This document shows, in pieces, positions 28,801-63,463 of a stretch of DNA of 64,000 nucleotides (position 1 is its first letter; each line of letters starts with the position of its first letter). The position numbers were made by a program, and so were the translations under genes. Location of the stretch: positions 17,141 through 81,140 of the IMG/VR virus record IMGVR_UViG_3300020185_004330, one strand, 5' to 3'. The DNA comes from a virus. The notes below the pieces were generated by a model. The model did no database searches. It had not been told where the DNA came from and saw only the letters and a program-made list of their open reading frames with translations.

Positions 28801-31449
28801 TTAATCTGGGTAAGTTATTGGAGTTAAATCATTTACAAGAGGCTCGTATGGAGACTCAATAGTATCTTCTTCATATATATTTGTATTTGTATTTGCCAAA
28901 TTTGTACTTGGATTTACACTTTCAACTAAATTAATTTGAAAATCAGAAATGTCAATATTACCTTCTGCTTTGTTAGAAAGGTTTGTATAGAAGTAATTAG
29001 ATGTTATTGTTGGGTCAAATCTATTTGAAATATTAACTCTAAGTTCAGAAGCTTGTATAACTGGTTCAAATACAGGAGGTATTTCAACTTTAAATTCTGA
29101 ACCATCATTTATACCTGGTTTATAAATAAATCTATGTCTATTAAATTCTGTATTTCCATAAACCGTTCCATATGTAGACATTATACTTGTAGAAGGAACT
29201 AAAAATGGAACTAAATCTTGAAAATTTCTTTCTAAAAGATTCAAAAATTTTTCTAACTTTCTAAATGTTAACCTATTTGACTCTTGGCTGTTGGTCCATA
29301 ACATATAGGTAATGTATATCTTTTTTAAATCTCTATAAGTTCCTGTTGTACCATTCTCCCAACCCTTTGTTTTTCTATTTCTTGGGTCTACATTGTTCTG
29401 ATATATATAGTCTATCCATTCATATATAGTCATTCCCGTTAAATTATCTGGTACAACTGTATTTACGTCTTCCACTTGCCATTCAAAAGGCACTGTTAAT
29501 CCTGAAAAAACAGAAGATGACGAACCCCATTTCCACCATCCATACCCAAACTCATACCAGTCCATAACATCACACTCTATAGCTCTAGACGGCCTTAAGT
29601 CTACGTTAATTTCTTTAGTATTTACAATATTTCTTGTGCTTCCTGTTTTTGTTTTTAAATTGTCAACTCTCTTAAATGGGTCATACTGACTACCAAGGCC
29701 TTCAATAAACTCTTTTCCATTACCTCTACCACTGCCTCCAATTTGAAATGTTTGAGCATTTACATCGGGGTATCCATCATTTACTATAACATTTAAATTA
29801 CTATCTAAAGGTTTTGAATCTTGCAAATCATCTGAACTTAAATCTTCAAAAATGTTTGCAGGAATAAAACTTTCTGGGTCTTCAATGTTTTCTGGTGCAA
29901 ATAAATTTGTATCTAAAGGACTTACCTGACTTACGACAGCCTCATCTATACCATCGACTACTTGTCGTTGGAGTTCTATGGGCAATTCGTCATTAAGTAT
30001 ATCACTTTCACCTAAGTTTAAGTCAAATCGTCTATTTACCTTTTTTACGTCATATATAAATTCTTCTAAATTAAAAAGACATTTTGGAGCACCTATTAAT
30101 TTAAATATAAAACTTATAGCATCTCTAGTTCCTCTTTTTTTGTAGAGCCAAACTATGTTTACCATTATTCGCCTCCAAATTTCTAAGTTATATTCTTCAA
30201 AAGCTTTACCGCTGGAATCAAACTCACCAGCTAAATAATCTATAACATTTTCAGCATTAAAAGCATTTGGCAATTTCGCCCCTAACATATCTGCCAATCT
30301 TGATAAAAATTTATTAGGAACACTTTCTGCTCCGTTGTAACTTACTGAATGTGCATAAGCTATTCCGTCTATATATTGTTTTATTGAATCAAATTGTTCA
30401 CCATAAACTGTTGTCAACTTTCTGTATGCTTTATTTTCAGAATCTAAATCTGTAAAATTTTCAGGAATCATAGTCCTGAGCATTATATTTGTTTTTTCTT
30501 CATCAATAATTCTAGCATTTTTTAATATGCTATCAGCATAAGACTCAAAGCCAAAACCATAACTATCTGGAGCAAATCCATCAATGCTTTTCGGCCAATC
30601 AAATTGTACTCTTGAATATGTGTCTGTATCAGCATCTGGAACTAGAAAATTGCCATCATAAATTAATTGTGTTTCTAAATTTGGCAAAGTTCTTTTAAAT
30701 TGACCTAATCTTTGCGTTGTCGGCCTTATATAAATTGGATAATTAAATGTGCTAGCACTTATTGGCTCTATAGGTAATAGTATTCCTTTTATTTTAAATT
30801 CAAAATATTGACCATACAAATAGTCGTATGAAACTATTTCATGAATTTCATTCATAAAAGTACCACCAGTAATAGTACTTTGAGACTCTCCACTTAACTG
30901 TATAGCAAAAGAACTGGTATCATTATATAAATCTATTTGAGCTTCCGACTGTTCAGACCTTCCTGATACATATAAAATATCGCCTTGGTTAGTTATTGAA
31001 GAGAGTGAAATTTTAAAAATTGACGTTTGTTGAACTAAGTCATGAGAATAATCATATATAGTTACACCGCTACTTATTGATTTGGAAAGTAATGCATATG
31101 GAAATGTATCAACTATATTATTTATAGCATTAGCAACTTTAGTATAAAATGAACCAAAATAAGCATAACTAGTAGCATCGTCTGGTTTTAAATTTAACTC
31201 GTTTGCTTTTGTGGTTATAATTTTTAAAACATCAAAATCAGCAGTTTTAGAATTTTCAATAGTAGCATAAGGCCCAAAAGAAAGGGTGGAACCACTAACG
31301 CTCTCAGTAAAAACATCTTCTAACCTATTAGAGTCTGTTCTAAATGTACCAAATGTAAATGCAGATTCAGCGCTTGTTGCTGCGAATCTTGAGTCCCTAC
31401 CAGGGGTTGGTCTTATGTCTAAAGTTGTACCACTATTTATTGATGTCAT
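28801..31449 (-). CDS. Baseplate/tail protein (P2 gpI / T4 gp7-like segment)
   Basis: VPNKFLSRLADMLG...IWRRIMVNIVWLYKKRGTRDAISFIFKLIG. Confidence 0.7.
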   Translation of the reverse strand: MTSINSGTTLDIRPTPGRDSRFAATSAESAFTFGTFRTDSNRLEDVFTESVSGSTLSFGPYATIENSKTADFDVLKIITTKANELNLKPDDATSYAYFGSFYTKVANAINNIVDTFPYALLSKSISSGVTIYDYSHDLVQQTSIFKISLSSITNQGDILYVSGRSEQSEAQIDLYNDTSSFAIQLSGESQSTITGGTFMNEIHEIVSYDYLYGQYFEFKIKGILLPIEPISASTFNYPIYIRPTTQRLGQFKRTLPNLETQLIYDGNFLVPDADTDTYSRVQFDWPKSIDGFAPDSYGFGFESYADSILKNARIIDEEKTNIMLRTMIPENFTDLDSENKAYRKLTTVYGEQFDSIKQYIDGIAYAHSVSYNGAESVPNKFLSRLADMLGAKLPNAFNAENVIDYLAGEFDSSGKAFEEYNLEIWRRIMVNIVWLYKKRGTRDAISFIFKLIGAPKCLFNLEEFIYDVKKVNRRFDLNLGESDILNDELPIELQRQVVDGIDEAVVSQVSPLDTNLFAPENIEDPESFIPANIFEDLSSDDLQDSKPLDSNLNVIVNDGYPDVNAQTFQIGGSGRGNGKEFIEGLGSQYDPFKRVDNLKTKTGSTRNIVNTKEINVDLRPSRAIECDVMDWYEFGYGWWKWGSSSSVFSGLTVPFEWQVEDVNTVVPDNLTGMTIYEWIDYIYQNNVDPRNRKTKGWENGTTGTYRDLKKIYITYMLWTNSQESNRLTFRKLEKFLNLLERNFQDLVPFLVPSTSIMSTYGTVYGNTEFNRHRFIYKPGINDGSEFKVEIPPVFEPVIQASELRVNISNRFDPTITSNYFYTNLSNKAEGNIDISDFQINLVESVNPSTNLANTNTNIYEEDTIESPYEPLVNDLTPITYPD

Positions 31450-46865: not shown

Positions 46866-47290
46866 TGTCAAAGTCTAATTATAAAATAAAAACTGAAATA
46901 ATAAAAGACAAGCCTTTTGTAACAGTTGAAATGTCATATAAAGATAGCTTTTCTAATGATAAATATATTTTATCTGGCAACCTGAATGAAAGTAAGGTTA
47001 ATTTTACTTTTGTAAAAAACAAAGAACAAAAGATAAATGAAGCATCTTTCTATGCTACAAATGATTTTGGTTCTAGTACATTTATTGAAGAGCTTTCGAA
47101 AGGAGTTAACAACTATGACTTCATTGAAGATTTCAAAAAAAATAACTTAGAAGACTTTACAAAAGAATTATCTGAATTTATTGTAAAGTGTGATTCGTCT
47201 ATGATTTCTGACGGAAAGATGTTTGAAGGGTACAAAAATAAACTAAGAGGTATGGCTGGCATAAGTGAAATAAATGAAAATTTGAGATAA
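46865..47290 (+). CDS. Hypothetical protein
   Basis: TAATG overlap; C-terminal EGYKNKLRGMAGI peptide. Confidence 0.65.
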   Translation: MSKSNYKIKTEIIKDKPFVTVEMSYKDSFSNDKYILSGNLNESKVNFTFVKNKEQKINEASFYATNDFGSSTFIEELSKGVNNYDFIEDFKKNNLEDFTKELSEFIVKCDSSMISDGKMFEGYKNKLRGMAGISEINENLR

Positions 47291-48261
47291 TGTTAATAAA
47301 AAAAGGAAGCAAAGGAAATGAGGTAAAAGAAATACAAAAAGCCTTAGGATTAAATGCTGATGGAATATTTGGAGCATACACTGAAGCGGCTGTAAAAAAA
47401 TATCAAAAATCTAAAGGATTGACGACAGACGGAATTGTTGGTCCTAAAACTTATAAAATACTAATAGGAGAAAATTTAGATGCAGACACCGATAGGTTTG
47501 GTTATGACGAGTCAAACGACAAGGATGATAAGTTAGAATATCTAGGAGCTTACACAACTGAAGACGGATTAAAGATTGATAAGGCCTATTTGGATTCTGA
47601 TGAATATGTAAGAACTTATGGTAAAATAGAGCCAGAAAACTTTTTTATACACCATACAGCAGGCTGGAACAATCCGTACAACACAATAAACTCCTGGAAT
47701 AGAGATAAAAGAGGTAGGGTTGCTACACAATATTGCATTGGAGGAATAAGTATAAAAAAAGGAAAATACGGAGACGATAAATATAATGGAGAAGTTGTAG
47801 AATGTTTTCCAAATGACTACATAGGTTGGCATCTAGGTAAAGTAGGTAATTTTGATATGTCAAAATACTCTTCTGCTGTTGAAGTTAATAATTTTGGTTA
47901 TGTAGTTAAAAAAGGAGATAAGTATTATAACTACGTAAATGTAGAAGTTCCCGAAAGTATGGTTTGTGATTTGGGCTACAAATTTAGAGGGCATCAATAT
48001 TGGCACGCATACACAACAGAACAAATTGAATCTCTAAGACTGTTGATTAAGCACGTTGCGAGAATTTATCCGAAAATAGATATTAAAGCAGGTATACCAC
48101 AACTTCTAAAGGACGGAATGGACCCCAAGGAAGCGTTTGAGTTTAATAAAGATGCTTATTATGGAAAGATAAAGGGGTTATGGAGTCACACGTCAGTACG
48201 TAAAGACAAATTTGATATGTATCCCTGTCCACGTTTAGTAGAAATGCTTAAAAATATTTAG
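47290..48261 (+). CDS. Endolysin: peptidoglycan-binding domain + N-acetylmuramoyl-L-alanine amidase (Amidase_2-like)
   Basis: KKGSKGNEVKEIQKAL..ADGIFG..TEAAVKKYQ....DGIVGPKT; FIHHTAG, SAVEV, WSHTSVRKDKFD. Confidence 0.85.
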   Translation: MLIKKGSKGNEVKEIQKALGLNADGIFGAYTEAAVKKYQKSKGLTTDGIVGPKTYKILIGENLDADTDRFGYDESNDKDDKLEYLGAYTTEDGLKIDKAYLDSDEYVRTYGKIEPENFFIHHTAGWNNPYNTINSWNRDKRGRVATQYCIGGISIKKGKYGDDKYNGEVVECFPNDYIGWHLGKVGNFDMSKYSSAVEVNNFGYVVKKGDKYYNYVNVEVPESMVCDLGYKFRGHQYWHAYTTEQIESLRLLIKHVARIYPKIDIKAGIPQLLKDGMDPKEAFEFNKDAYYGKIKGLWSHTSVRKDKFDMYPCPRLVEMLKNI

Positions 48262-50221: not shown

Positions 50222-50294
50222 TTTTTTATTTTTGTAAAAATTGTTATCTATAAATATAGGAATTTTTCTTTTTTTCTTGTAATTTCGTAATATT

Positions 50295-52190
50295 ATGAGC
50301 ACAAACACAATTGTCATAACGAAGCTTAAGTCTAATTATAAAGTAGAATATAATTATAGAAAGAATTTAAGCGACTTCATTAAGGGCTTTCCTGATGACC
50401 AAAGGAAGATAAATGTAGATTACATACAAAATCCTGATGGTACTGGTTATGAGAGTTGGTATAGAGTTGTTTCTGGTGGGTACATAGGTAAAGTTATATC
50501 TTTCATAAAAGATAATGGCATGCCCTTTAAGTTTACCAATTTAAGCCCTGAAGAGGTTGAGCTATTAAGAAAAAATTTTATCAAAAGACAAGAGTCTTTG
50601 CTTAAGGCCTTATCCATAAAGACAGAAAACATAGACACTTCTAAGGTTGATTTCTCATTCATGAATATAGAGCCATATGATTATCAAAAACAAGCTGCAA
50701 TATTTTTTGATGCTTGTAACGGAAGAGCTTTGTTGGGAGACCAGCCAGGCGTTGGAAAGACTGCAGCGGCAATGACTTATGCTTGTTGGAAAGGAAAAAA
50801 AACACTAATCGTATGCCCAGCAAATCTTAGGTTAAATTGGAGAAATGAAATACATAAATTCACGAAAGAAAAAGCTTTTGTGTACAAATGGAAACCAACT
50901 AAAAAATCAAAGAAAATTAATAATTCCAAAGAAGAATCTATGTTTCATATTATGAGCTATAGCTCTTTGGATACATACATAACAATAGAAATGTCTCACA
51001 CTTGTAAAAATGTGTTTTGCGGATGGAAAGGGAGGAATAGTAAAAAAAGATATAAAGACAAAGTTTGCCCTAACTGTGGAGTTAGAGGCATGGTCAATTC
51101 GAGAGCTACCAAAAATATAACATTCACACCAGATAAAATGGGAGAAGTTTTAAATGCGGAGGATTATGAAATATTGATAATGGATGAGGCTCATTATATC
51201 AAAAACAACTCAGCAGACAGAACTAAGTTAGCAAAGAAAACTTTAAAAGATATTCCTCAAAAACTTTTACTTACTGGTACAGCCATAAAAAGCAGACCCT
51301 ATGAATTCTTTTCACTACTTAATTTCCTTTACCCAGAAGAATGGAGTAATGCCCACTCTTTTGGTGTTAAGTATTGTGCTGCAGAAAAAAACAATTTCGG
51401 ATGGGATTATAATGGAGCATCTAATCTAGATGAGTTGTTTGAAAAAATATCACCATTCTTTCTTAGGAGATTAAAAAAAGACATCCTAAAACACTTGCCC
51501 CCAAAAACTTATACAGCAATACCTGTAGAGCTCACCCCTATAGAGATGAGAGAGTACAACAAAATTAAAAAAGGCATAAAAGAAGAGAGTGCTCAAGATG
51601 ACCAAGAAGCTGACAACAGAATGAATCACCTAACTAGGATTCAAAAGCTAAAACAGTTTACTTCCGAAATAAAAATGAAAAGAGCATTTGAGTTTATTCA
51701 AGACATTATTGACGGAGACGAGAAGGTTGTTGTGTTTAGTCAGTACAAAGGAATTTCTTACGAAGTTGCTAATAAATTCGGAGATAAAGCAGTTGTATTT
51801 AATGGAGACATTAATGCAAACAAAAAAGAAGAGGCTGTAGAGGCTTTTATGACAGATGACAATGTCAAGGTCTTCTCTGGAACGATAGGGGCAGCAGGAG
51901 TCGGCATAACGCTTACATCGGCAAGTATTTCAATATTCATTGACCAACCGTGGACTAGTGCAGATAGAGAGCAGGCAGAAGATAGGATACACAGAGCGTC
52001 CTCCACGTCAGATAAAATACAAATCATAAGACTTATATGTCAAGATACAATCGATGAAGATATAGAAAAGCTTTTAAATCAAAAGTCCTCAATATTATCT
52101 AAAGTTTTAGATGGGAAAGAATTTGAGCAGACAGTTGAGGTTAAAGACGGTAATATATTCGGAGATTTAATAAAATTATTATACAACTAA
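50295..52190 (+). CDS. SNF2-family (SF2) helicase/ATPase
   Basis: GDQPGVGKT, IVCPA, MDEAH, LLTGT, PFFLRRLKKD, VVVFSQY, GVGITL, QAEDRIHR. Confidence 0.9.
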   Translation: MSTNTIVITKLKSNYKVEYNYRKNLSDFIKGFPDDQRKINVDYIQNPDGTGYESWYRVVSGGYIGKVISFIKDNGMPFKFTNLSPEEVELLRKNFIKRQESLLKALSIKTENIDTSKVDFSFMNIEPYDYQKQAAIFFDACNGRALLGDQPGVGKTAAAMTYACWKGKKTLIVCPANLRLNWRNEIHKFTKEKAFVYKWKPTKKSKKINNSKEESMFHIMSYSSLDTYITIEMSHTCKNVFCGWKGRNSKKRYKDKVCPNCGVRGMVNSRATKNITFTPDKMGEVLNAEDYEILIMDEAHYIKNNSADRTKLAKKTLKDIPQKLLLTGTAIKSRPYEFFSLLNFLYPEEWSNAHSFGVKYCAAEKNNFGWDYNGASNLDELFEKISPFFLRRLKKDILKHLPPKTYTAIPVELTPIEMREYNKIKKGIKEESAQDDQEADNRMNHLTRIQKLKQFTSEIKMKRAFEFIQDIIDGDEKVVVFSQYKGISYEVANKFGDKAVVFNGDINANKKEEAVEAFMTDDNVKVFSGTIGAAGVGITLTSASISIFIDQPWTSADREQAEDRIHRASSTSDKIQIIRLICQDTIDEDIEKLLNQKSSILSKVLDGKEFEQTVEVKDGNIFGDLIKLLYN

Positions 52191-52195
52191 AAAAC

Positions 52196-52468
52196 ATGAA
52201 AAAACTAAACACTATTTTATACATTCTAATTTTGAGTTTCTTAATTGCAGGATGTGCAGACGTAAGCCCTAACGCAATCGATTGTGTTAATGAATCTTCT
52301 TATGGATTCTTTGGTGGTTTATGGCATGGACTAATATCAATATTTTCTTTTATAGGAAGCCTATTTATGGATGATGTGGCAGTGTATGCCTATAACAACA
52401 ATGGAGCCTTGTATGATTTTGGTTTTTTACTGGGGGCTGGGGCTTTTGCTTCTCGTGCGACAAAGTAG
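52196..52468 (+). CDS. Small lipoprotein/membrane protein
   Basis: Lipobox-like LIAGC; GFFGGLWHG...YDFGFLLG hydrophobic segments. Confidence 0.7.
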   Translation: MKKLNTILYILILSFLIAGCADVSPNAIDCVNESSYGFFGGLWHGLISIFSFIGSLFMDDVAVYAYNNNGALYDFGFLLGAGAFASRATK

Positions 52469-52472
52469 TAAT

Positions 52473-52796
52473 TTGACAATTACAAAACACATACTACTAG
52501 AAGGCAAAAAGTCAGTCAACGGACTAGAAGTTTCTGATAATTTGGGTATAATGAATTGGTATGAGGCAATAGTTGCTTGCAAAAGTTTGGGACCAGGATG
52601 GAGATTGCCAACAAAAGACGAATTGAATATGTTTTATGAAAATAAGGAAGAAATTGGCGGTTTTGCTTTTAACGGCTATTGGAGTTGTACGGATTTCGGG
52701 AACCTCAATGCGTGGAATCAGAATTTCTACGATGGTGTCCAGTACTACAACGGTAAGGACGACTTCATCTATGTTCGCGCTGTTCGGGCTTCTTAA
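52473..52796 (+). CDS. DUF1566/CLec-fold variable protein, copy 1
   Basis: W..A...C..LG.GWRLPTKDEL...YWS...AW...F..G......K....VRAVR; TTG start by parallel with copies 2-5. Confidence 0.85.
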   Translation: MTITKHILLEGKKSVNGLEVSDNLGIMNWYEAIVACKSLGPGWRLPTKDELNMFYENKEEIGGFAFNGYWSCTDFGNLNAWNQNFYDGVQYYNGKDDFIYVRAVRAS

Positions 52797-52816
52797 CAAT
52801 TTAACTATTTAACCAT

Positions 52817-53140
52817 TTGACAATTACAAAACACATATTACTAGAAGACAGAAAGTCAATCAACGGACTAGAAGTGTCTCATAATCTAGGGTCAATGAAT
52901 TGGCATGAAGCAAAAATTGCTTGTAAAAAATTAGGACTAGGATGGAGATTGCCAACAAAAGACGAATTAAATATGCTTTATGAAAATAAGGAAGAAATTG
53001 GCGGTTTTGCTAATGTCAACTATTGGAGTTCTACGGTGTTCGTTAACTCCAGTGCGTGGGCTCAGGGTTTCAACAATGGTAGCCAGTTCTTCGACTTTAA
53101 GTACTTCAACCTCTATGTTCGCGCTGTTCGGGCTTCTTAA
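52817..53140 (+). CDS. DUF1566/CLec-fold variable protein, copy 2
   Basis: Same motifs as copy 1; variable region ~53009-53140. Confidence 0.85.
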   Translation: MTITKHILLEDRKSINGLEVSHNLGSMNWHEAKIACKKLGLGWRLPTKDELNMLYENKEEIGGFANVNYWSSTVFVNSSAWAQGFNNGSQFFDFKYFNLYVRAVRAS

Positions 53141-53160
53141 CAATTTAACTATTTAACCAT

Positions 53161-53484
53161 TTGACAATTAAAAAACACATATTACTAGAATCAAGAAAAG
53201 CAATTAATGGATTAGAAGTCTCTAATAATTTAGGTCGTATGACTTGGTATGAAGCAATAAGTGCTTGCAAGAATTTGGGAACAGGATGGAGATTGCCAAC
53301 AAAAGACGAATTGAATATGCTTTATGAAAACAAGGAAGAAATTGGCGGTTTTGCTAATAACTTCTATTGGAGTTCTACGGAGAACGATAACTACGATGCG
53401 TGGAGACAGTATTTCGGCGATGGTAACCAGTACAACTTCAATAAGCTCGACACACTCTCTGTTCGGGCTGTTCGGGCTTCTTAA
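53161..53484 (+). CDS. DUF1566/CLec-fold variable protein, copy 3
   Basis: Same motifs; variable region ~53353-53484. Confidence 0.85.
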   Translation: MTIKKHILLESRKAINGLEVSNNLGRMTWYEAISACKNLGTGWRLPTKDELNMLYENKEEIGGFANNFYWSSTENDNYDAWRQYFGDGNQYNFNKLDTLSVRAVRAS

Positions 53485-53504
53485 CAATTTAACTATTTAA
53501 CCAT

Positions 53505-53828
53505 TTGACAATTACAAAACACATATTACTAGAAGGTAAAAAGTCAATCAATGGATTAGAAGTCTCTAATAATTTAGGATATATGACTTGGCATGAAGCA
53601 ATAAGTGCTTGCAAAAAATTAGGAACAGGATGGAGATTGCCAACGAAAGACGAATTGAATATGCTTTATGAAAACAAGGAAGAAATTGGCGGTTTTGCTT
53701 ATTTCTTCTATTGGAGTTCTACGGAGACTGGTAACGGCAGTGCGTGGGTTCAGTATTTCTCCAATGGTGTCCAGGGCTACTACAATAAGCTCAACTGCTA
53801 CTGTGTTCGCGCTGTTCGGGCTTCTTAA
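53505..53828 (+). CDS. DUF1566/CLec-fold variable protein, copy 4
   Basis: Same motifs; variable region ~53697-53828. Confidence 0.85.
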   Translation: MTITKHILLEGKKSINGLEVSNNLGYMTWHEAISACKKLGTGWRLPTKDELNMLYENKEEIGGFAYFFYWSSTETGNGSAWVQYFSNGVQGYYNKLNCYCVRAVRAS

Positions 53829-53848
53829 CAATTTAACTATTTAACCAT

Positions 53849-54175
53849 TTGACAATTACAAAACACATACTACTAGAAGGCAAAAAGTCAGTCAACGGAC
53901 TAGAAGTTTCTGATAATTTGGGTATAATGAATTGGTATGACGCAAAAATTTACTGCAAAAAATTAGGAGCAGAATGGAGATTGCCAACAAAAGACGAATT
54001 GAATATGCTTTATGAAAACAAGGAAGAAATTGGCGGTTTTTCTAATAAGTTCTTCTATTGGAGTTCTACGGAGTTCGATTTCTCCAGTGCGTGGACTCAG
54101 AATTTCCTCCTTGGTTACCAGGGCACCAACAATAAGGACAACGTCACCTATGTTCGCGCTGTTCGGGCTTCTTAA
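53849..54175 (+). CDS. DUF1566/CLec-fold variable protein, copy 5
   Basis: Same motifs; variable region ~54041-54175 with one extra codon. Confidence 0.85.
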   Translation: MTITKHILLEGKKSVNGLEVSDNLGIMNWYDAKIYCKKLGAEWRLPTKDELNMLYENKEEIGGFSNKFFYWSSTEFDFSSAWTQNFLLGYQGTNNKDNVTYVRAVRAS

Positions 54176-54209
54176 CAATTTAACTATTTAACAATTAAAA
54201 TAAATATAT

Positions 54210-54290: not shown

Positions 54291-54367
54291 GGACGGGTAG
54301 CTCAGCTGGATAGAGCCACGCACTTCTAATGCGTAGGTCGAAGGTTCGAATCCTTCTCCGTTCACCA
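54291..54367 (+). tRNA. tRNA-Arg (anticodon UCU)
   Basis: Full cloverleaf; anticodon arm ACGCA-CTTCTAA-TGCGT; GGTTCGAATCC T-arm; encoded CCA. Confidence 0.95.
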
Positions 54368-54373
54368 TTTATA

Positions 54374-54682
54374 GGGCCTCTAGCTCAGATGGTTAGAGCA
54401 ACTGACTCATTAGTAATAGTGCCGTTAGCAAGAAATTGTTAAATGTGAATGGGGTGAATTCAAGGAAATCTTAACACGTAACGGTGATGACAACCATGAG
54501 CCAAGTCTGTGGTACACCACAGAAAGGTGCAGAGACTACTGGAGAAGTTTAGCCTTCTTAATAACCAGGTTTAGCGCCCCAAACCCTAACGTAAAGACGA
54601 GGGTTATGAGATAGTCCACAGAGTTATGAAAATAACACAAATGTGAATCAGTAGGTCACAGGTTCGAATCCTGTGGGGCCCA
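54374..54682 (+). tRNA. tRNA(CAU), probably Ile2 (lysidine type), split by an intron: exons 54374-54410 and 54646-54682
   Basis: Joined exons give a cloverleaf with ACTGA-CTCATAA-TCAGT; G1-C72 and no GGG/CCC anticodon stem, so not an initiator tRNA. Confidence 0.85.
54411..54645 (+). ncRNA. ORF-less group I intron (IC3-like, 235 nt)
   Basis: 5' exon ends in U and intron ends in G; P AATTCAAGGAAA, Q AACCATGAGC, R GTGCAGAGACTA, S GAGATAGTCC; P3 GGGGTG/CGCCCC. Confidence 0.85.
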
Positions 54683-54710: not shown

Positions 54711-55592
54711 ATGGAAAAGAAAAAGTGTGTTAATTGTGATTTGGAATTTGAATCTAAATCTAAAACAAAGAAGTTTTGTAGTGTAAAATGTTCTTGTTCT
54801 TACAACAATAAAAGAAAAGAAAACACTAGCAAAAAAAGTGAAGTAAAAGAAAAGCTTAGAAAAAAAGCCCTAGAACAATACGACAAAAAGTATGGAGCCT
54901 TAAAAAAGTTTGATGTTAATTGTAAATGTTGTGGAGCTATAGTTGTTGTAGAAGAAAGGGAAAAACAGTTTCCCAAAAAAGATAAATACTTTTGCTCAAA
55001 GTCATGTAGCAATACTAGGCGTCACACATCTGAAACTAAAAGTAAGATAAGCAATTCTTTACATGGTACTGGCAACAAGGATGTATTTATAACTTGTAAA
55101 CAGTGTAATGTTAAGTTTGAGCGCAAATGGACAAAGAGAAATCAGAAATTTTGTTCCCGAAGTTGTGCCTCTAAATTTGTTAGTAATACAGAAGAAAGAA
55201 AAAGTTTACAAAGTTTAATAGGTAGAAGGTCTGCTGCTAAGCAATCTATAGAAAGAAGGAGTAAAAATGAAATTCATTTTGCCAACCTTTGTAAGGAAGA
55301 GTTTAGAAAAGTAATTACAAATGAGCCTATTTTTAACGGCTGGGATGCTGATGTTATAGTTCAAGATTTAAATATAGCTGTACTTTGGAATGGTAAATGG
55401 CATTATGAGAAAATTACTGAATCACACTCAGTTTCTCAAGTTCAAAATAGAGATAAAATTAAAATAAAAGAAATAAAAAAAGCAGGATATATTCCATATG
55501 TTATAAAAGATATGGGAAGAGCTAATAAAGAAAAAGTTGAAAAAGAATTTAAAAAATTTATAAAATTTGTAAATCAAATTAAATTGCGATAA
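54711..55592 (+). CDS. Free-standing putative homing endonuclease (Zn-ribbon repeats + Vsr/PD-(D/E)XK-like C-terminus)
   Basis: Three CxxC...FCSxxC repeats; NEPIFNGWDADVIV..LNIAVLWNGKWHY. Confidence 0.65.
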   Translation: MEKKKCVNCDLEFESKSKTKKFCSVKCSCSYNNKRKENTSKKSEVKEKLRKKALEQYDKKYGALKKFDVNCKCCGAIVVVEEREKQFPKKDKYFCSKSCSNTRRHTSETKSKISNSLHGTGNKDVFITCKQCNVKFERKWTKRNQKFCSRSCASKFVSNTEERKSLQSLIGRRSAAKQSIERRSKNEIHFANLCKEEFRKVITNEPIFNGWDADVIVQDLNIAVLWNGKWHYEKITESHSVSQVQNRDKIKIKEIKKAGYIPYVIKDMGRANKEKVEKEFKKFIKFVNQIKLR

Positions 55593-58149: not shown

Positions 58150-58647
58150 ATGCAGCAAGTATTAGTATTAAACAGCACATACCAGCCCATAAACGTAACA
58201 AGCTTATCCAGAGGTTTTAAGCTAGTTTTTAAAGGGAAGGCTGAAATACTAGAACACATCTCAAAAGAGCCTATTGTAACAGAAAGAAAAAGTTTTAAAA
58301 GACCTACAGTTATTAGGCTTTTAAAATACGTCTCTGTTCCTTTTAGAAAAGTTTATTTATGTAGACAAAATATATTTAGAAGAGATGATTTTCAGTGTCT
58401 GTACTGTGATAGCGAAAAGGACTTAACTATAGACCATGTAATACCTAGTTCTAGAGGAGGTAATAACACTTGGCAAAATTTAGCAACATGTTGTAAACAT
58501 TGTAACGAAACAAAGGACAACAAAACCCCAGAAGAAGCTAATATGAATATGAGACATAAACCTTTTAGGCCTTCTTATTTATATTATGTTCAGAAATTTA
58601 AAAGAATACATAAATCATGGAATGTTTATGTTGGAATTAAGAGTTAA
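58150..58647 (+). CDS. HNH endonuclease
   Basis: VLVLNSTYQP, RRDDFQCLYC, LTIDHVIPSSRGG...WQNLATCCKHCN. Confidence 0.9.
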   Translation: MQQVLVLNSTYQPINVTSLSRGFKLVFKGKAEILEHISKEPIVTERKSFKRPTVIRLLKYVSVPFRKVYLCRQNIFRRDDFQCLYCDSEKDLTIDHVIPSSRGGNNTWQNLATCCKHCNETKDNKTPEEANMNMRHKPFRPSYLYYVQKFKRIHKSWNVYVGIKS

Positions 58648-59510
58648 GACTTTTTATAAGCCCTAATATAATCTATTTCGTGATACGTTGGAAACGTAGC
58701 TTCATCTAGCTTCCTGTCTTCACCAGCATCTATCTGATTTCCTATAATGATGTGCATTGGATGCTTGAACTCTTCTATGGCTTTTGGGTTACTAAAAACT
58801 CTAATTAATATATTATCATAATATATTTTAAATCCTTTTTCATTCCATTCTACTGCATACGTGTGAAAGCTTTTTGATATATTACTAACGTTATGACCCA
58901 TCACTTTCATGTTTTTGTTCTCAGAAGTTCCCCAATGAAAGTTAGACTCGAAATTAACTAGACCCTTAACAGGTTTGCCAGTGTATGCTTCATATATATC
59001 TATCTCTGGCGGCCAAGCATGAGTAGACGCCATCCAAAATGCAGGCCAGTGACCTGGTTCTGAAGGCATTTTGCTTCTTATTTCAAAAAAACCGTACTTT
59101 TGTTCAAACGACTTAGAGCTATCTAGGTGCCCCACTCTATAGGGTATAGTATATGAACCATAATCCTCACCTTTCCAAGTCACATGATTTATTTTTATCG
59201 GATTTTTTTCAGCTTTTTGCTTTATTGTAGAGTCTGTAAATTCAAACATATTGTCTCCACAATATTGTAATGGAGCTTTATTTTCTTCAATTATGCTACC
59301 TGGATGGTATCTTAATCCAAAATAATGGTCAGTTCTCCATTTTTTTTTATCTAATTTCTTATTGTTAAATTCGTCTTGAAAAGTTAATTTCCACCCTTTT
59401 TTATTAGAATCATTTTTAACACTTTTGAACCTATTAGAGTCAAACGCCAAATAGCACCATAACCTAACTTTTAAAAAAAAGTTGATTACAAAATCTCTCA
59501 ACACCCACAT
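58644..59510 (-). CDS. Glycoside hydrolase family 16
   Basis: WKLTFQDEF, YGFFEIRSKMP..GHWPAFW, catalytic EIDIYE, FHTYAVEW, IDYIRAY. Confidence 0.85.
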   Translation of the reverse strand: MWVLRDFVINFFLKVRLWCYLAFDSNRFKSVKNDSNKKGWKLTFQDEFNNKKLDKKKWRTDHYFGLRYHPGSIIEENKAPLQYCGDNMFEFTDSTIKQKAEKNPIKINHVTWKGEDYGSYTIPYRVGHLDSSKSFEQKYGFFEIRSKMPSEPGHWPAFWMASTHAWPPEIDIYEAYTGKPVKGLVNFESNFHWGTSENKNMKVMGHNVSNISKSFHTYAVEWNEKGFKIYYDNILIRVFSNPKAIEEFKHPMHIIIGNQIDAGEDRKLDEATFPTYHEIDYIRAYKKS

Positions 59511-59741: not shown

Positions 59742-59762
59742 AATATTATTTTTAATTAAAAG

Positions 59763-61888: not shown

Positions 61889-62188
61889 TTGAGTCATCCG
61901 TATAAATATAATAAATACAGCAATCCTAACTTAGAGTGGGAAAGAAAGCTTATTTTATATTGTAACTTTATTTCAGATAGACTTAAAAGTTATTTGGCAA
62001 AAAAGAATATGACAACAAAAGAGTTGTCTAAAAAAATTGATATTTCACACGAAAGTGCTAAATTGATGCTAGATGATGTTTATGTGTATAATTTTAACTT
62101 AGAGGAAATGAGCAAATTAGACCTTTTGTTTGAGGGTCATTATGATGTTTATGAAAAAAAGATTTTAATAGAAAAGTTAAACATTTAG
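61889..62188 (+). CDS. Hypothetical protein, possible HTH
   Basis: MTTKELSKKIDISHESA...YNFNLEEMSKL. Confidence 0.45.
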   Translation: MSHPYKYNKYSNPNLEWERKLILYCNFISDRLKSYLAKKNMTTKELSKKIDISHESAKLMLDDVYVYNFNLEEMSKLDLLFEGHYDVYEKKILIEKLNI

Positions 62189-63133: not shown

Positions 63134-63463
63134 ATGACTAAAAGTCTTTTGATAGAAAAGTACGAACATTTGTCTCTTAATTTAGCTTCTGTTCAAGTAA
63201 CAGGAGAATGTAGAACCTTAAGAGTGGCTTGGACTCCTGTGTTTACTCAAGATTTAGACTATTATACTCAAATAACAAATAGTTATGAGCATGAAGAGCC
63301 TGAGAATGTATATAAAAAGATATTATTAATTGAAAAGTATGTACCAAAAAAACTTACTGGATTTGATACTGAAGCTGAGCTAACAGATATACTATCAAGA
63401 CAATTAGCTCAAGAAATTGATAGAGAAATCTTATGTAATTTAACAAACTTAGAGAATGAGTGA
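63134..63463 (+). CDS. Mini-protein containing a major-capsid-protein (gp23-like) fragment
   Basis: CRTLRVAWTPVFTQDL...FDTEAELTDILSRQLAQEIDREI resembles T4 gp23 SRQLKAAYSIELAQDL...MDADAELSGILATEIMLEINREV. Confidence 0.65.
   Translation: MTKSLLIEKYEHLSLNLASVQVTGECRTLRVAWTPVFTQDLDYYTQITNSYEHEEPENVYKKILLIEKYVPKKLTGFDTEAELTDILSRQLAQEIDREILCNLTNLENE

Follow-up and report, generated by a model that had tools for sequence, protein, structure and literature searches.

Positions 52471-54195 of the window, the 64-kb stretch analysed here of the 88-kb virus record IMGVR_UViG_3300020185_004330 (~27% complete), hold five direct, head-to-tail repeats with a unit of exactly 344 nt. Each repeat carries one open reading frame (ORF) of 107-108 amino acids (aa) with a TTG start, which we call a mini-gene and its product a mini (Table 1). 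The five mini-genes have the sequence signature of targets of a diversity-generating retroelement (DGR), with a C-terminal variable repeat (VR) rewritten at the adenines of a template repeat (TR). The cognate TR, Avd and reverse transcriptase (RT) lie in Bacteroidota chromosomes, and both this location and the origin of the mini-genes from a host adhesin were missed by the initial annotation of the locus. The database call for the mini protein is 88 aa, which is shorter than our reading of 107 aa. We prefer the 107-aa start because relatives have an ATG at or adjoining the position of the TTG in the window, codons 2-60 are under purifying selection, and the N-terminus can be aligned with bacterial homologues from the first residues.

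The mini protein is a lectin-fold domain alone. All five minis match Lcl_C (PF07603, DUF1566) with 39.4-52.7 bits, above the gathering threshold of 34.9, and an AlphaFold2 model based on 47 homologues has a mean predicted local distance difference test score (pLDDT) of 89, with values below 50 at residues 1-10 only. Using Foldseek, the best match of the model in the PDB is the C-terminal domain of Legionella Lcl (8q4e; TMq 0.77, 34% identity, E=2.6e-7), with numerous C-type lectin-like domains ranking next. The five minis lack a signal peptide, membrane helix, shaft, collagen repeat and any further domain, and their maximum 19-residue Kyte-Doolittle values are 0.05-0.64, compared with 2.04 for the adjoining lipoprotein. 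Hence, Pfam, structure prediction and hydropathy all agree with the initial annotation, which had described a bare C-type-lectin-like domain without signal peptide, transmembrane helix or fibre shaft. The leader of ~20 aa that it placed in front of the domain is instead the first beta-hairpin of the domain, given that residues 5-21 (KHILLEGKKSVNGLEVS) align with strands of the bacterial head (GGYVIAVRDGGKHGLVVA), where the head domain starts just past the collagen stalk of bacterial DGR targets. Only ~4-10 N-terminal residues lie outside the fold. As a whole, the mini corresponds in alignment to residues 190-307 of a bacterial target of 308 aa, i.e. past the collagen stalk, and the phage record has no homologue of the stalk/collagen or N-domain of the bacterial target, or of Avd. 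On these alignments, the phage genes are the excised head of a collagen-stalked surface adhesin of the host type, a protein that a chromosomal DGR diversifies in marine Bacteroidota. The mini family comprises 385 database clusters of constant length (marine data) and is found in several distinct phage lineages.

Variation among the five genes falls in the last ~135 nt of each, at codon positions 1 and 2, and position 3 stays C or T. To predict the TR, every variable site of the VR was set to A and the resulting sequence was searched for in sequence collections. An exact match was found in eight metagenome contigs (JGI scan), together with two unmutated VRs, and the same TR core pattern is present in seven contigs of metagenome-assembled genomes (MAGs) from Bacteroidota (Flavobacteriales, Algoriphagus and Ferruginibacter), six of them with a full TR and one (L033) diverging downstream. 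Compared with the TR of contig L028, the five VRs are changed at 120/255 adenine sites but at only 7/420 other sites (Fisher p=4e-51), and the AAC/AAT codons of the TR appear as NNC/NNT in the phage VRs. Of the 51 TR adenines, 44 vary in at least one of the five copies, and the seven invariant ones are found in codons for Tyr, Ser, Thr, Gln and Lys that belong to the scaffold motif YWSST...Q...K. The divergence of the VR backbones from the TR is 1.7%, against 12.4% among the five scaffolds, which indicates that the VRs are being rewritten and are not relics. The same decoupling is seen between phages, as gene 2 and copy 1 of the related array L006 differ at 0/181 nt of the scaffold and at 24/134 nt of the VR, and in public protein data, in which identical 61-aa scaffolds are paired with up to five different VRs. 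Judged from this substitution pattern, the five array genes are almost certainly active DGR targets.

An identical VR is found in two genes with different scaffolds (P0002 and P0004) on different contigs, at L006:3179-3313 and L017:8514-8648, both from sample 3300020185, and also at L039:10185-10319. Independent mutagenic cDNAs should not coincide, which suggests gene conversion between loci or two arrays in one genome; G008, which has no SNF2 homologue, could represent a different portion of this genome type. A more distant relative (L008:9650-10336) has two mini copies in which a stop codon directly precedes the conserved codons for FKHILLE and no canonical in-frame start is seen at the usual place, so that the start may be elsewhere or the genes may be decaying. 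The 3' ends of its VRs (…GTTCGGTATTGC) deviate from the TR family.

The bacterial cassettes that hold the TR have the order signal-peptide target, bAvd, TR and RT. The target consists of a signal peptide, a conserved N-domain, collagen repeats in most cases and an Lcl_C head in all, and ends in VRAVRAF; the TR is followed by a GC hairpin and then by the RT of ~420 aa. The RTs of the cassettes (L023, L025, L026, L028, L030, L031, L034, L035 and L037) are 81-95% identical to that of L028. Several cassettes include a small protein with a type IX secretion system C-terminal domain (T9SS-CTD; Pfam-confirmed in L028 and L037), and the flanks are of cellular character, with genes for a PBP4-type carboxypeptidase, glycosyltransferase, sulfotransferase, GWxTD protein, amine oxidase and T9SS-CTD protein on contigs of up to 199 kb. 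All eight TRs from JGI metagenomes have the TR/hairpin arrangement of these signal-peptide-target cassettes, with bAvd and RT where the sequence extends far enough, and no phage-type genes were recognised around them.

The cassette TRs have a 35-nt core (the search pattern) exactly in common and differ mainly at the 3' end. Together with the RT identity, which extends across contigs of Flavobacteriales and Ferruginibacter MAGs, this common core suggests that the cassette has recently spread by horizontal transfer within the Bacteroidota. In L024 (L024:185-3001), a second, different RT (398 aa, phrog_1423) lies ~2 kb 5' of the DGR target gene. Two ORFs precede this RT, one for a protein of 419 aa that is hydrophobic at its C-terminus and one for a protein of 116 aa, and primase-like and Cas4-like genes lie beside it. 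This region looks like a defence-type RT island. The RT of the DGR itself is a truncated form in L024, joined to a segment that resembles an aspartyl protease.

Two sequence features at the end of the phage VRs are also present in the bacterial cis-targets. Homology between VR and TR stops at …GTTCGGGCTTCT in the VR and …GTTCGGGGTTTT in the TR, with the same pattern in the bacterial cis-targets (GGGCTTTT). After the shared GTTCGGG, the phage reads CTTCT, the bacterial target CTTTT and the TR GTTTT, which gives an initiation of mutagenic homing (IMH)-type 3' boundary of GGGCTT in the phage versus GGGGTT in the TR. Between the mini-genes, a run of four tandem 8-mers spans the stop codon to the start of the next gene, and the fourth 8-mer, TGACAATT, provides the TTG start. 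A run of (TAACNATT)3-4 begins at the stop codon of the bacterial cis-targets too (L022, L024, L028, L030, L032, L035 and L037). We regard (TAACNATT)n as a candidate DGR target-recognition element, a function suggested by its position in both settings. In earlier work, an IMH and downstream element sufficed to make a heterologous gene a target, with avd-TR-brt acting in trans (PMC3240598; PMC5758913).

The source of the rewriting can be approached from where the DGR components are found. No TR, RT or Avd was detected in the window or in the whole 88-kb record, and no DGR core in ten other VR-bearing viral records, including ones rated 90%, 98% and 100% complete. A scan of all IMG/VR with a pattern that matches VR and TR alike gave nine VR contigs and no TR, and the nearest RT in IMG/VR is 63% identical, compared with 81-95% among the bacterial RTs. 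The window VRs fit an L028-type TR allele best and those of L007 an L024-type allele, and the L006 array combines VRs that best fit L028- and L036-type alleles; the SNF2 helicases of these phages are 96-97% identical and encoded at the same position. Three TR alleles in near-identical phages make a single phage-borne TR an unlikely source, and meetings with different host DGRs would fit. On this evidence we lean slightly towards the array VRs being rewritten in trans by the DGR of the infected host cell. The competing explanation, which concerns only this part of the model, is that the phage has its own RT, Avd and TR in the unsequenced 73% of its genome and that the array is an ordinary remote target set. 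We give this considerable weight while judging it somewhat improbable. The record is only ~27% complete, and phage DGRs commonly have targets that are not adjacent but lie within tens of kb (PMC5758913). However, it has to account for the absence of TRs from IMG/VR despite the nine VR-bearing viral contigs, the absence of a close RT there, the signal-peptide-target cassettes around all eight JGI TRs, the RT-less phages rated 90-100% complete that carry such targets, and the three TR alleles, two of them in one array. Besides the incompleteness of the record, two further points count against rewriting in trans. The completeness of the RT-less phages is estimated by CheckV, and every one of these records is 'linear'; and no GC-rich inverted repeat was found in the 20-nt phage spacers or after copy 5, although bacterial VRs have a GC-rich hairpin ~45-55 nt downstream. 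In BPP-1, the hairpin downstream of the VR strongly promotes homing.

The genomic context of the mini-genes bears on whether their products are fibre tips. The initial annotation put the array more than 16 kb from the nearest tail gene, and our analysis covers this point through the fibre-like paralogues, which are encoded at 22.9-27.3 kb, ~25 kb from the array; their assignment follows from YadA-head-like repeats in the sequences, with no PHROGs family for most, and the ORFs at 41-50 kb were inspected by their N-termini only. In all seven phage contexts examined, the minis are co-oriented with helicase, replication or metabolic genes, and no recognisable tail module surrounds them. The neighbours are a SNF2 helicase in the window, L006 and L007; a UvrD helicase, directly 3' of which the mini lies, with sigma factors, an exonuclease and NAD-salvage genes; PcfJ, T5orf172, DHFR and GlnRS, oriented divergently to the neck and sheath genes; a group of small genes flanked by terminase and primase in a phage of 51 kb; genes for a Dps-like protein, UvsX and RNR in a phage of 117 kb; and DnaB, Sak4 and primase. 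The longest viral form, of 268 aa (L015), is domain-only and lies beside UvsX/RNR, and no mini fused to a fibre was found among the viral loci, with no protein-database search aimed at longer forms. At the same locus in near-identical phages there are 1, 3 or 5 mini copies, and the same three fibre paralogues are present in a 1-copy genome (G002) and a 5-copy genome (G000), which argues against an adaptor at one mini per fibre. Given the head-only architecture and the non-tail gene contexts, the minis are very probably not covalent, Mtd-like fibre tips, and the doubt that the initial annotation raised about such a role is upheld in this sense. Among the cultured phages in INPHARED, the mini has only a 38%-identical match, the SNF2 helicase only distant matches, and the 882-aa protein (28801-31449) encoded beside the fibre genes no relative.

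We propose an explanation in which each phage gene keeps only the globular head of a host-type collagen-stalked adhesin, and in which the last 45 codons are held in register with the bacterial TR and would be re-randomised at TR adenines, in trans, by the DGR that the infected host cell happens to carry. The products would be free, soluble, cytoplasmically made 12-kDa binders, co-expressed with the SNF2 helicase operon, that act during infection on host proteins, with defence factors as the obvious candidate targets. The analysis shows the gene structure, the fold, the adenine mutagenesis, the cognate TR family, the host-type cassette, the gene contexts and the purifying selection; the action in trans, the function of the 8-mers and the intracellular role are the parts of this explanation that we infer. 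That the minis are non-structural intracellular hypervariable binders is a tentative reading of the sequences, which we place a little short of probable. The full combination, in which the phage keeps a tandem library of intracellular binders that the chromosomal DGR of the host re-randomises in trans against variable host factors, such as defence proteins, is unlikely when taken as a whole.

Several other roles have to be weighed against intracellular binding. The minis could be virion-borne accessory adhesins, i.e. heads docked non-covalently on the fibre, baseplate or capsid through a conserved face of the scaffold, where they would broaden host or substrate binding through a mixed, diversified repertoire, in analogy with gp38 on T2/T6-type long tail fibres or with Hoc-like decoration. 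In published surveys, tail and receptor-binding proteins make up most of the phage DGR targets (PMC8144416; PMC10743442). The VRs sample the sequence space of a host surface adhesin, and virions decorated in this way could stick to the substrates of the host; the phage also has YadA-head-like fibre paralogues, and the five scaffolds differ from each other at surface-type positions. We nevertheless find this role rather unlikely, because the whole protein is head, with no docking domain, shaft or anchor, the relatives are never in a recognisable tail module in the contexts examined, no fibre-fused form is seen, and the copy number changes from 1 to 5 with the same three fibre paralogues. A few observations favour a place in the virion and speak against a non-structural one. 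The TATAAATA motif 5' of the operon could mean late expression, and in the PcfJ/DHFR lineage the mini is only 2-6 kb from the neck and sheath genes, on the opposite strand. T4-like phages scatter non-essential virion genes (hoc, soc and internal proteins) among non-structural genes, which makes gene context weak evidence for a non-structural role.

Another route into the host cell would be packaging and ejection as internal proteins, with MTITKHILLE, cut before the following G, as a T4-type capsid-targeting peptide that ends in an LxE prohead-protease site, and with the minis as IPI*-like inhibitors. This has some appeal, as the conserved 10-residue peptide ends in L-L-E and has a pLDDT <50, K-x-(I/L)-L-(I/L)-E also heads short capsid/sheath-fragment genes at 63.1 kb, and LLEG is present in the gp23 propeptide of a related phage with a Peptidase_S77 gene. 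T4 internal proteins are small and diverse, share only the capsid-targeting sequence, and some counter host restriction (IPI*) (PMC3012670). However, the peptide aligns with strand beta0 of the bacterial-target head, which explains its conservation, cleavage at LxE would cut into the fold, and the motif count of 10 versus 2.5 in shuffles comes down to ~4 independent cases, one of them a glycosyltransferase; we consider this origin most improbable. The mini-genes might also be hitch-hikers, captured host head genes without a phage function that are rewritten because they have retained the target signals. The AAC/AAT design of the TR cannot create stop codons (NNC/NNT), the genes are in hyperplastic regions adjoining homing endonucleases, and the copy number is unstable. 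In the opposite direction, the scaffolds have a ratio of nonsynonymous to synonymous polymorphism (pN/pS) of 0.34 and a synonymous divergence (dS) between copies of up to 0.6, the family recurs across phage lineages at constant length, and arrays have expanded to five diverged copies, which makes a lack of function very unlikely.

Wu et al. 2018 (PMC5758913) assign the variable proteins with DUF1566/DUF823/Fib_succ_major domains and CLec2 VRs to category d, with Legionella LdtA as the prototype, and about half of this category are short, domain-only proteins. The array resembles category d in its domain family, in the position of the VR in the C-terminal part of the lectin fold and in the AAC-rich logic of the TR. 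However, category d proteins are cellular, mostly exported surface proteins that adjoin the RT or are encoded in the genome of the RT, whereas the array is carried by a lytic-type huge phage, is export-less and consists of five tandem genes, with no RT or TR found on the phage DNA examined. With Mtd of BPP-1, the minis share a phage-borne C-type-lectin fold, a C-terminal VR rewritten at TR adenines and an IMH-type 3' boundary. Mtd, of 381 aa, forms the trimeric tip of the fibre, and its gene lies in the tail module next to the DGR of the phage (mtd-avd-TR-brt); in contrast, the minis are 107-aa heads with no shaft, encoded outside the tail module, with no cis DGR found and no GC hairpin. Remote DGR targets are known, among them the TvpA set of Treponema denticola and targets >100 kb away, with one TR that serves several dispersed targets, so that the machinery acts in trans on any DNA with the target signals. 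Wu et al. 2018 argue against expecting remote targets of phage DGRs and consider such targets only within a cell (PMC5758913). Known remote targets share the replicon or cell lineage of the DGR, and the array is apparently the reverse, with a cellular DGR and targets on an infecting phage.

The bacterial cis-targets share the collagen-stalk-plus-head layout of Legionella pneumophila Lcl (8q4e; PMC11162425), which is extracellular and not DGR-diversified. The phage minis have no stalk, a part that would probably drive trimer formation. gp38 of T2/T6-type phages and IPI* of T4 are functional analogies only, as small stand-alone proteins with hypervariable binding surfaces, of which gp38 clips onto the fibre tip and IPI* is delivered to neutralise a host defence enzyme (PMC3012670). 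Neither is related to the minis in sequence or fold, and neither is retroelement-diversified; gp38 is encoded beside gp37, and the targeting peptide of IPI* is a genuine one that is cleaved off.

In the accepted view, phage DGRs are tropism switches that act on tail fibres encoded next to the RT of the DGR. Stand-alone, domain-only DUF1566 targets are already known, making up half of category d. What is new is that several marine phage lineages have head genes in tandem, export-less and in non-structural regions, that the cognate templates are found only in host-type (Bacteroidota) chromosomes, where they serve a secreted adhesin, and that a common (TAACNATT)n signal occurs without a hairpin. 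A limited literature search found no paper that describes DGR targets on an infecting phage. If rewriting in trans is true, DGRs link host and virus genomes in a way that is invisible to RT-anchored surveys, and the minimal natural target signal would be an IMH and (TAACNATT)n, with no hairpin. The mini would then be a 12-kDa natural scaffold for in vivo diversification of binders. If, in addition, the binders act inside the cell on variable host factors, the virus would exploit a hypermutation machine of the cell for a self-renewing, antibody-like counter-defence. The place where the binders act, in the cell or on the virion, determines if DGR biology reaches further than adhesion.

The array is the last part of what appears to be one transcription unit with the SNF2 helicase and the lipoprotein gene, as indicated by gaps of 4-5 nt between them and by the lack of terminator-like sites between 49911 and 54800. 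A functional tie between the array and the lipoprotein was considered and rejected, as their adjacency is limited to the closest relatives and absent from other lineages. The TATAAATA motif has 31 sites in the window versus 12.8 expected (2.4-fold), a count reached by no shuffle, and the sites (for example 512, 843, 7809, 17726, 23681, 43682, 45486 and 50249) are often 10-110 nt 5' of gene starts, non-structural genes included. Its enrichment and placement make TATAAATA a likely promoter element of this phage; the site at the head of the unit weakly suggests a T4-type element. The initial annotation had the array between the SNF2 helicase/lipoprotein and a tRNA cluster, of which the 5' side is correct and the cluster comes down to one tRNA-Arg and an intron element; ARAGORN detects only one further tRNA, at 59762. 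An ORF for a NUMOD3/HNH-like endonuclease follows the intron at 54711-55592.

Table 1 Features of the mini-gene array and its surroundings in the window. Changes in the VRs are given relative to the L028-type TR.
Feature	Position	Strand	Description
TATAAATA motif	50249..50256	+	39 nt 5' of the SNF2 start; possible T4-type promoter element heading the SNF2-lipoprotein-array unit
SNF2-family helicase	50295..52190	+	SNF2-rel_dom 3.7e-34, Helicase_C; phrog_62; first gene of the apparent transcription unit
90-aa lipobox/membrane protein	52196..52468	+	phrog_30702; directly 5' of the array
Mini-gene 1	52473..52796	+	107-aa head-only Lcl_C protein, TTG start
VR1	52654..52788	+	135 nt, last 45 codons of gene 1; non-A mismatches 3/84, A-site changes 23/51
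Mini-gene 2	52817..53140	+	107 aa
VR2	52998..53132	+	Non-A mismatches 0/84, A-site changes 27/51
Mini-gene 3	53161..53484	+	107 aa
VR3	53342..53476	+	Non-A mismatches 2/84, A-site changes 19/51
Mini-gene 4	53505..53828	+	107 aa
VR4	53686..53820	+	Non-A mismatches 1/84, A-site changes 28/51
Mini-gene 5	53849..54175	+	108 aa; 3-nt insertion inside the VR
VR5	54030..54167	+	138 nt; non-A mismatches 1/84, A-site changes 23/51, one 3-nt gap
Inter-gene element	52794..52825, 53138-53169, 53482-53513, 53826-53857	+	Four tandem 8-mers TAACAATT TAACTATT TAACCATT TGACAATT
tRNA-Arg(TCT)	54291..54367		3' of the array
Group I intron	54402..54638		Rfam RF00028, 80.8 bits; directly after tRNA-Arg(TCT)

Some further observations concern other parts of the window and related phages. 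In the capsid/sheath-fragment region, K-x-(I/L)-L-(I/L)-E-K is present at an ORF start at 63140 (MTKSLLIEKYE), internally at 63317 and at the C-terminus of the preceding ORF at 62156; the similar K-H-I-L-L-E is at the N-terminus of all five minis, and there are no other matches in the window. Two small ORFs with weak Pfam matches to Gp23 (major capsid), at L060:7540-7968 and L061:1607-2098, lie two genes 5' of a mini in another huge-phage lineage and resemble the short capsid-fragment genes of the window. By inspection of the translations only, 58644-59510 has the look of a GH16-type glycoside hydrolase with a hydrophobic N-terminus and 47290-48261 that of a peptidoglycan-binding amidase, and both are conserved in L006 and L007. 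The phage record opens, 5' of the window, with a glycan-building cluster (L058:212-9307; G000:C1:212-9307) that encodes GT2-like and GT10-/GT11-type (fucosyl)transferases, a sulfotransferase, a GDP-mannose 4,6-dehydratase, an epimerase and a DegT aminotransferase, and that could make sulfated or fucosylated glycans. Lcl, the closest structural relative of the minis, binds sulfated glycans.

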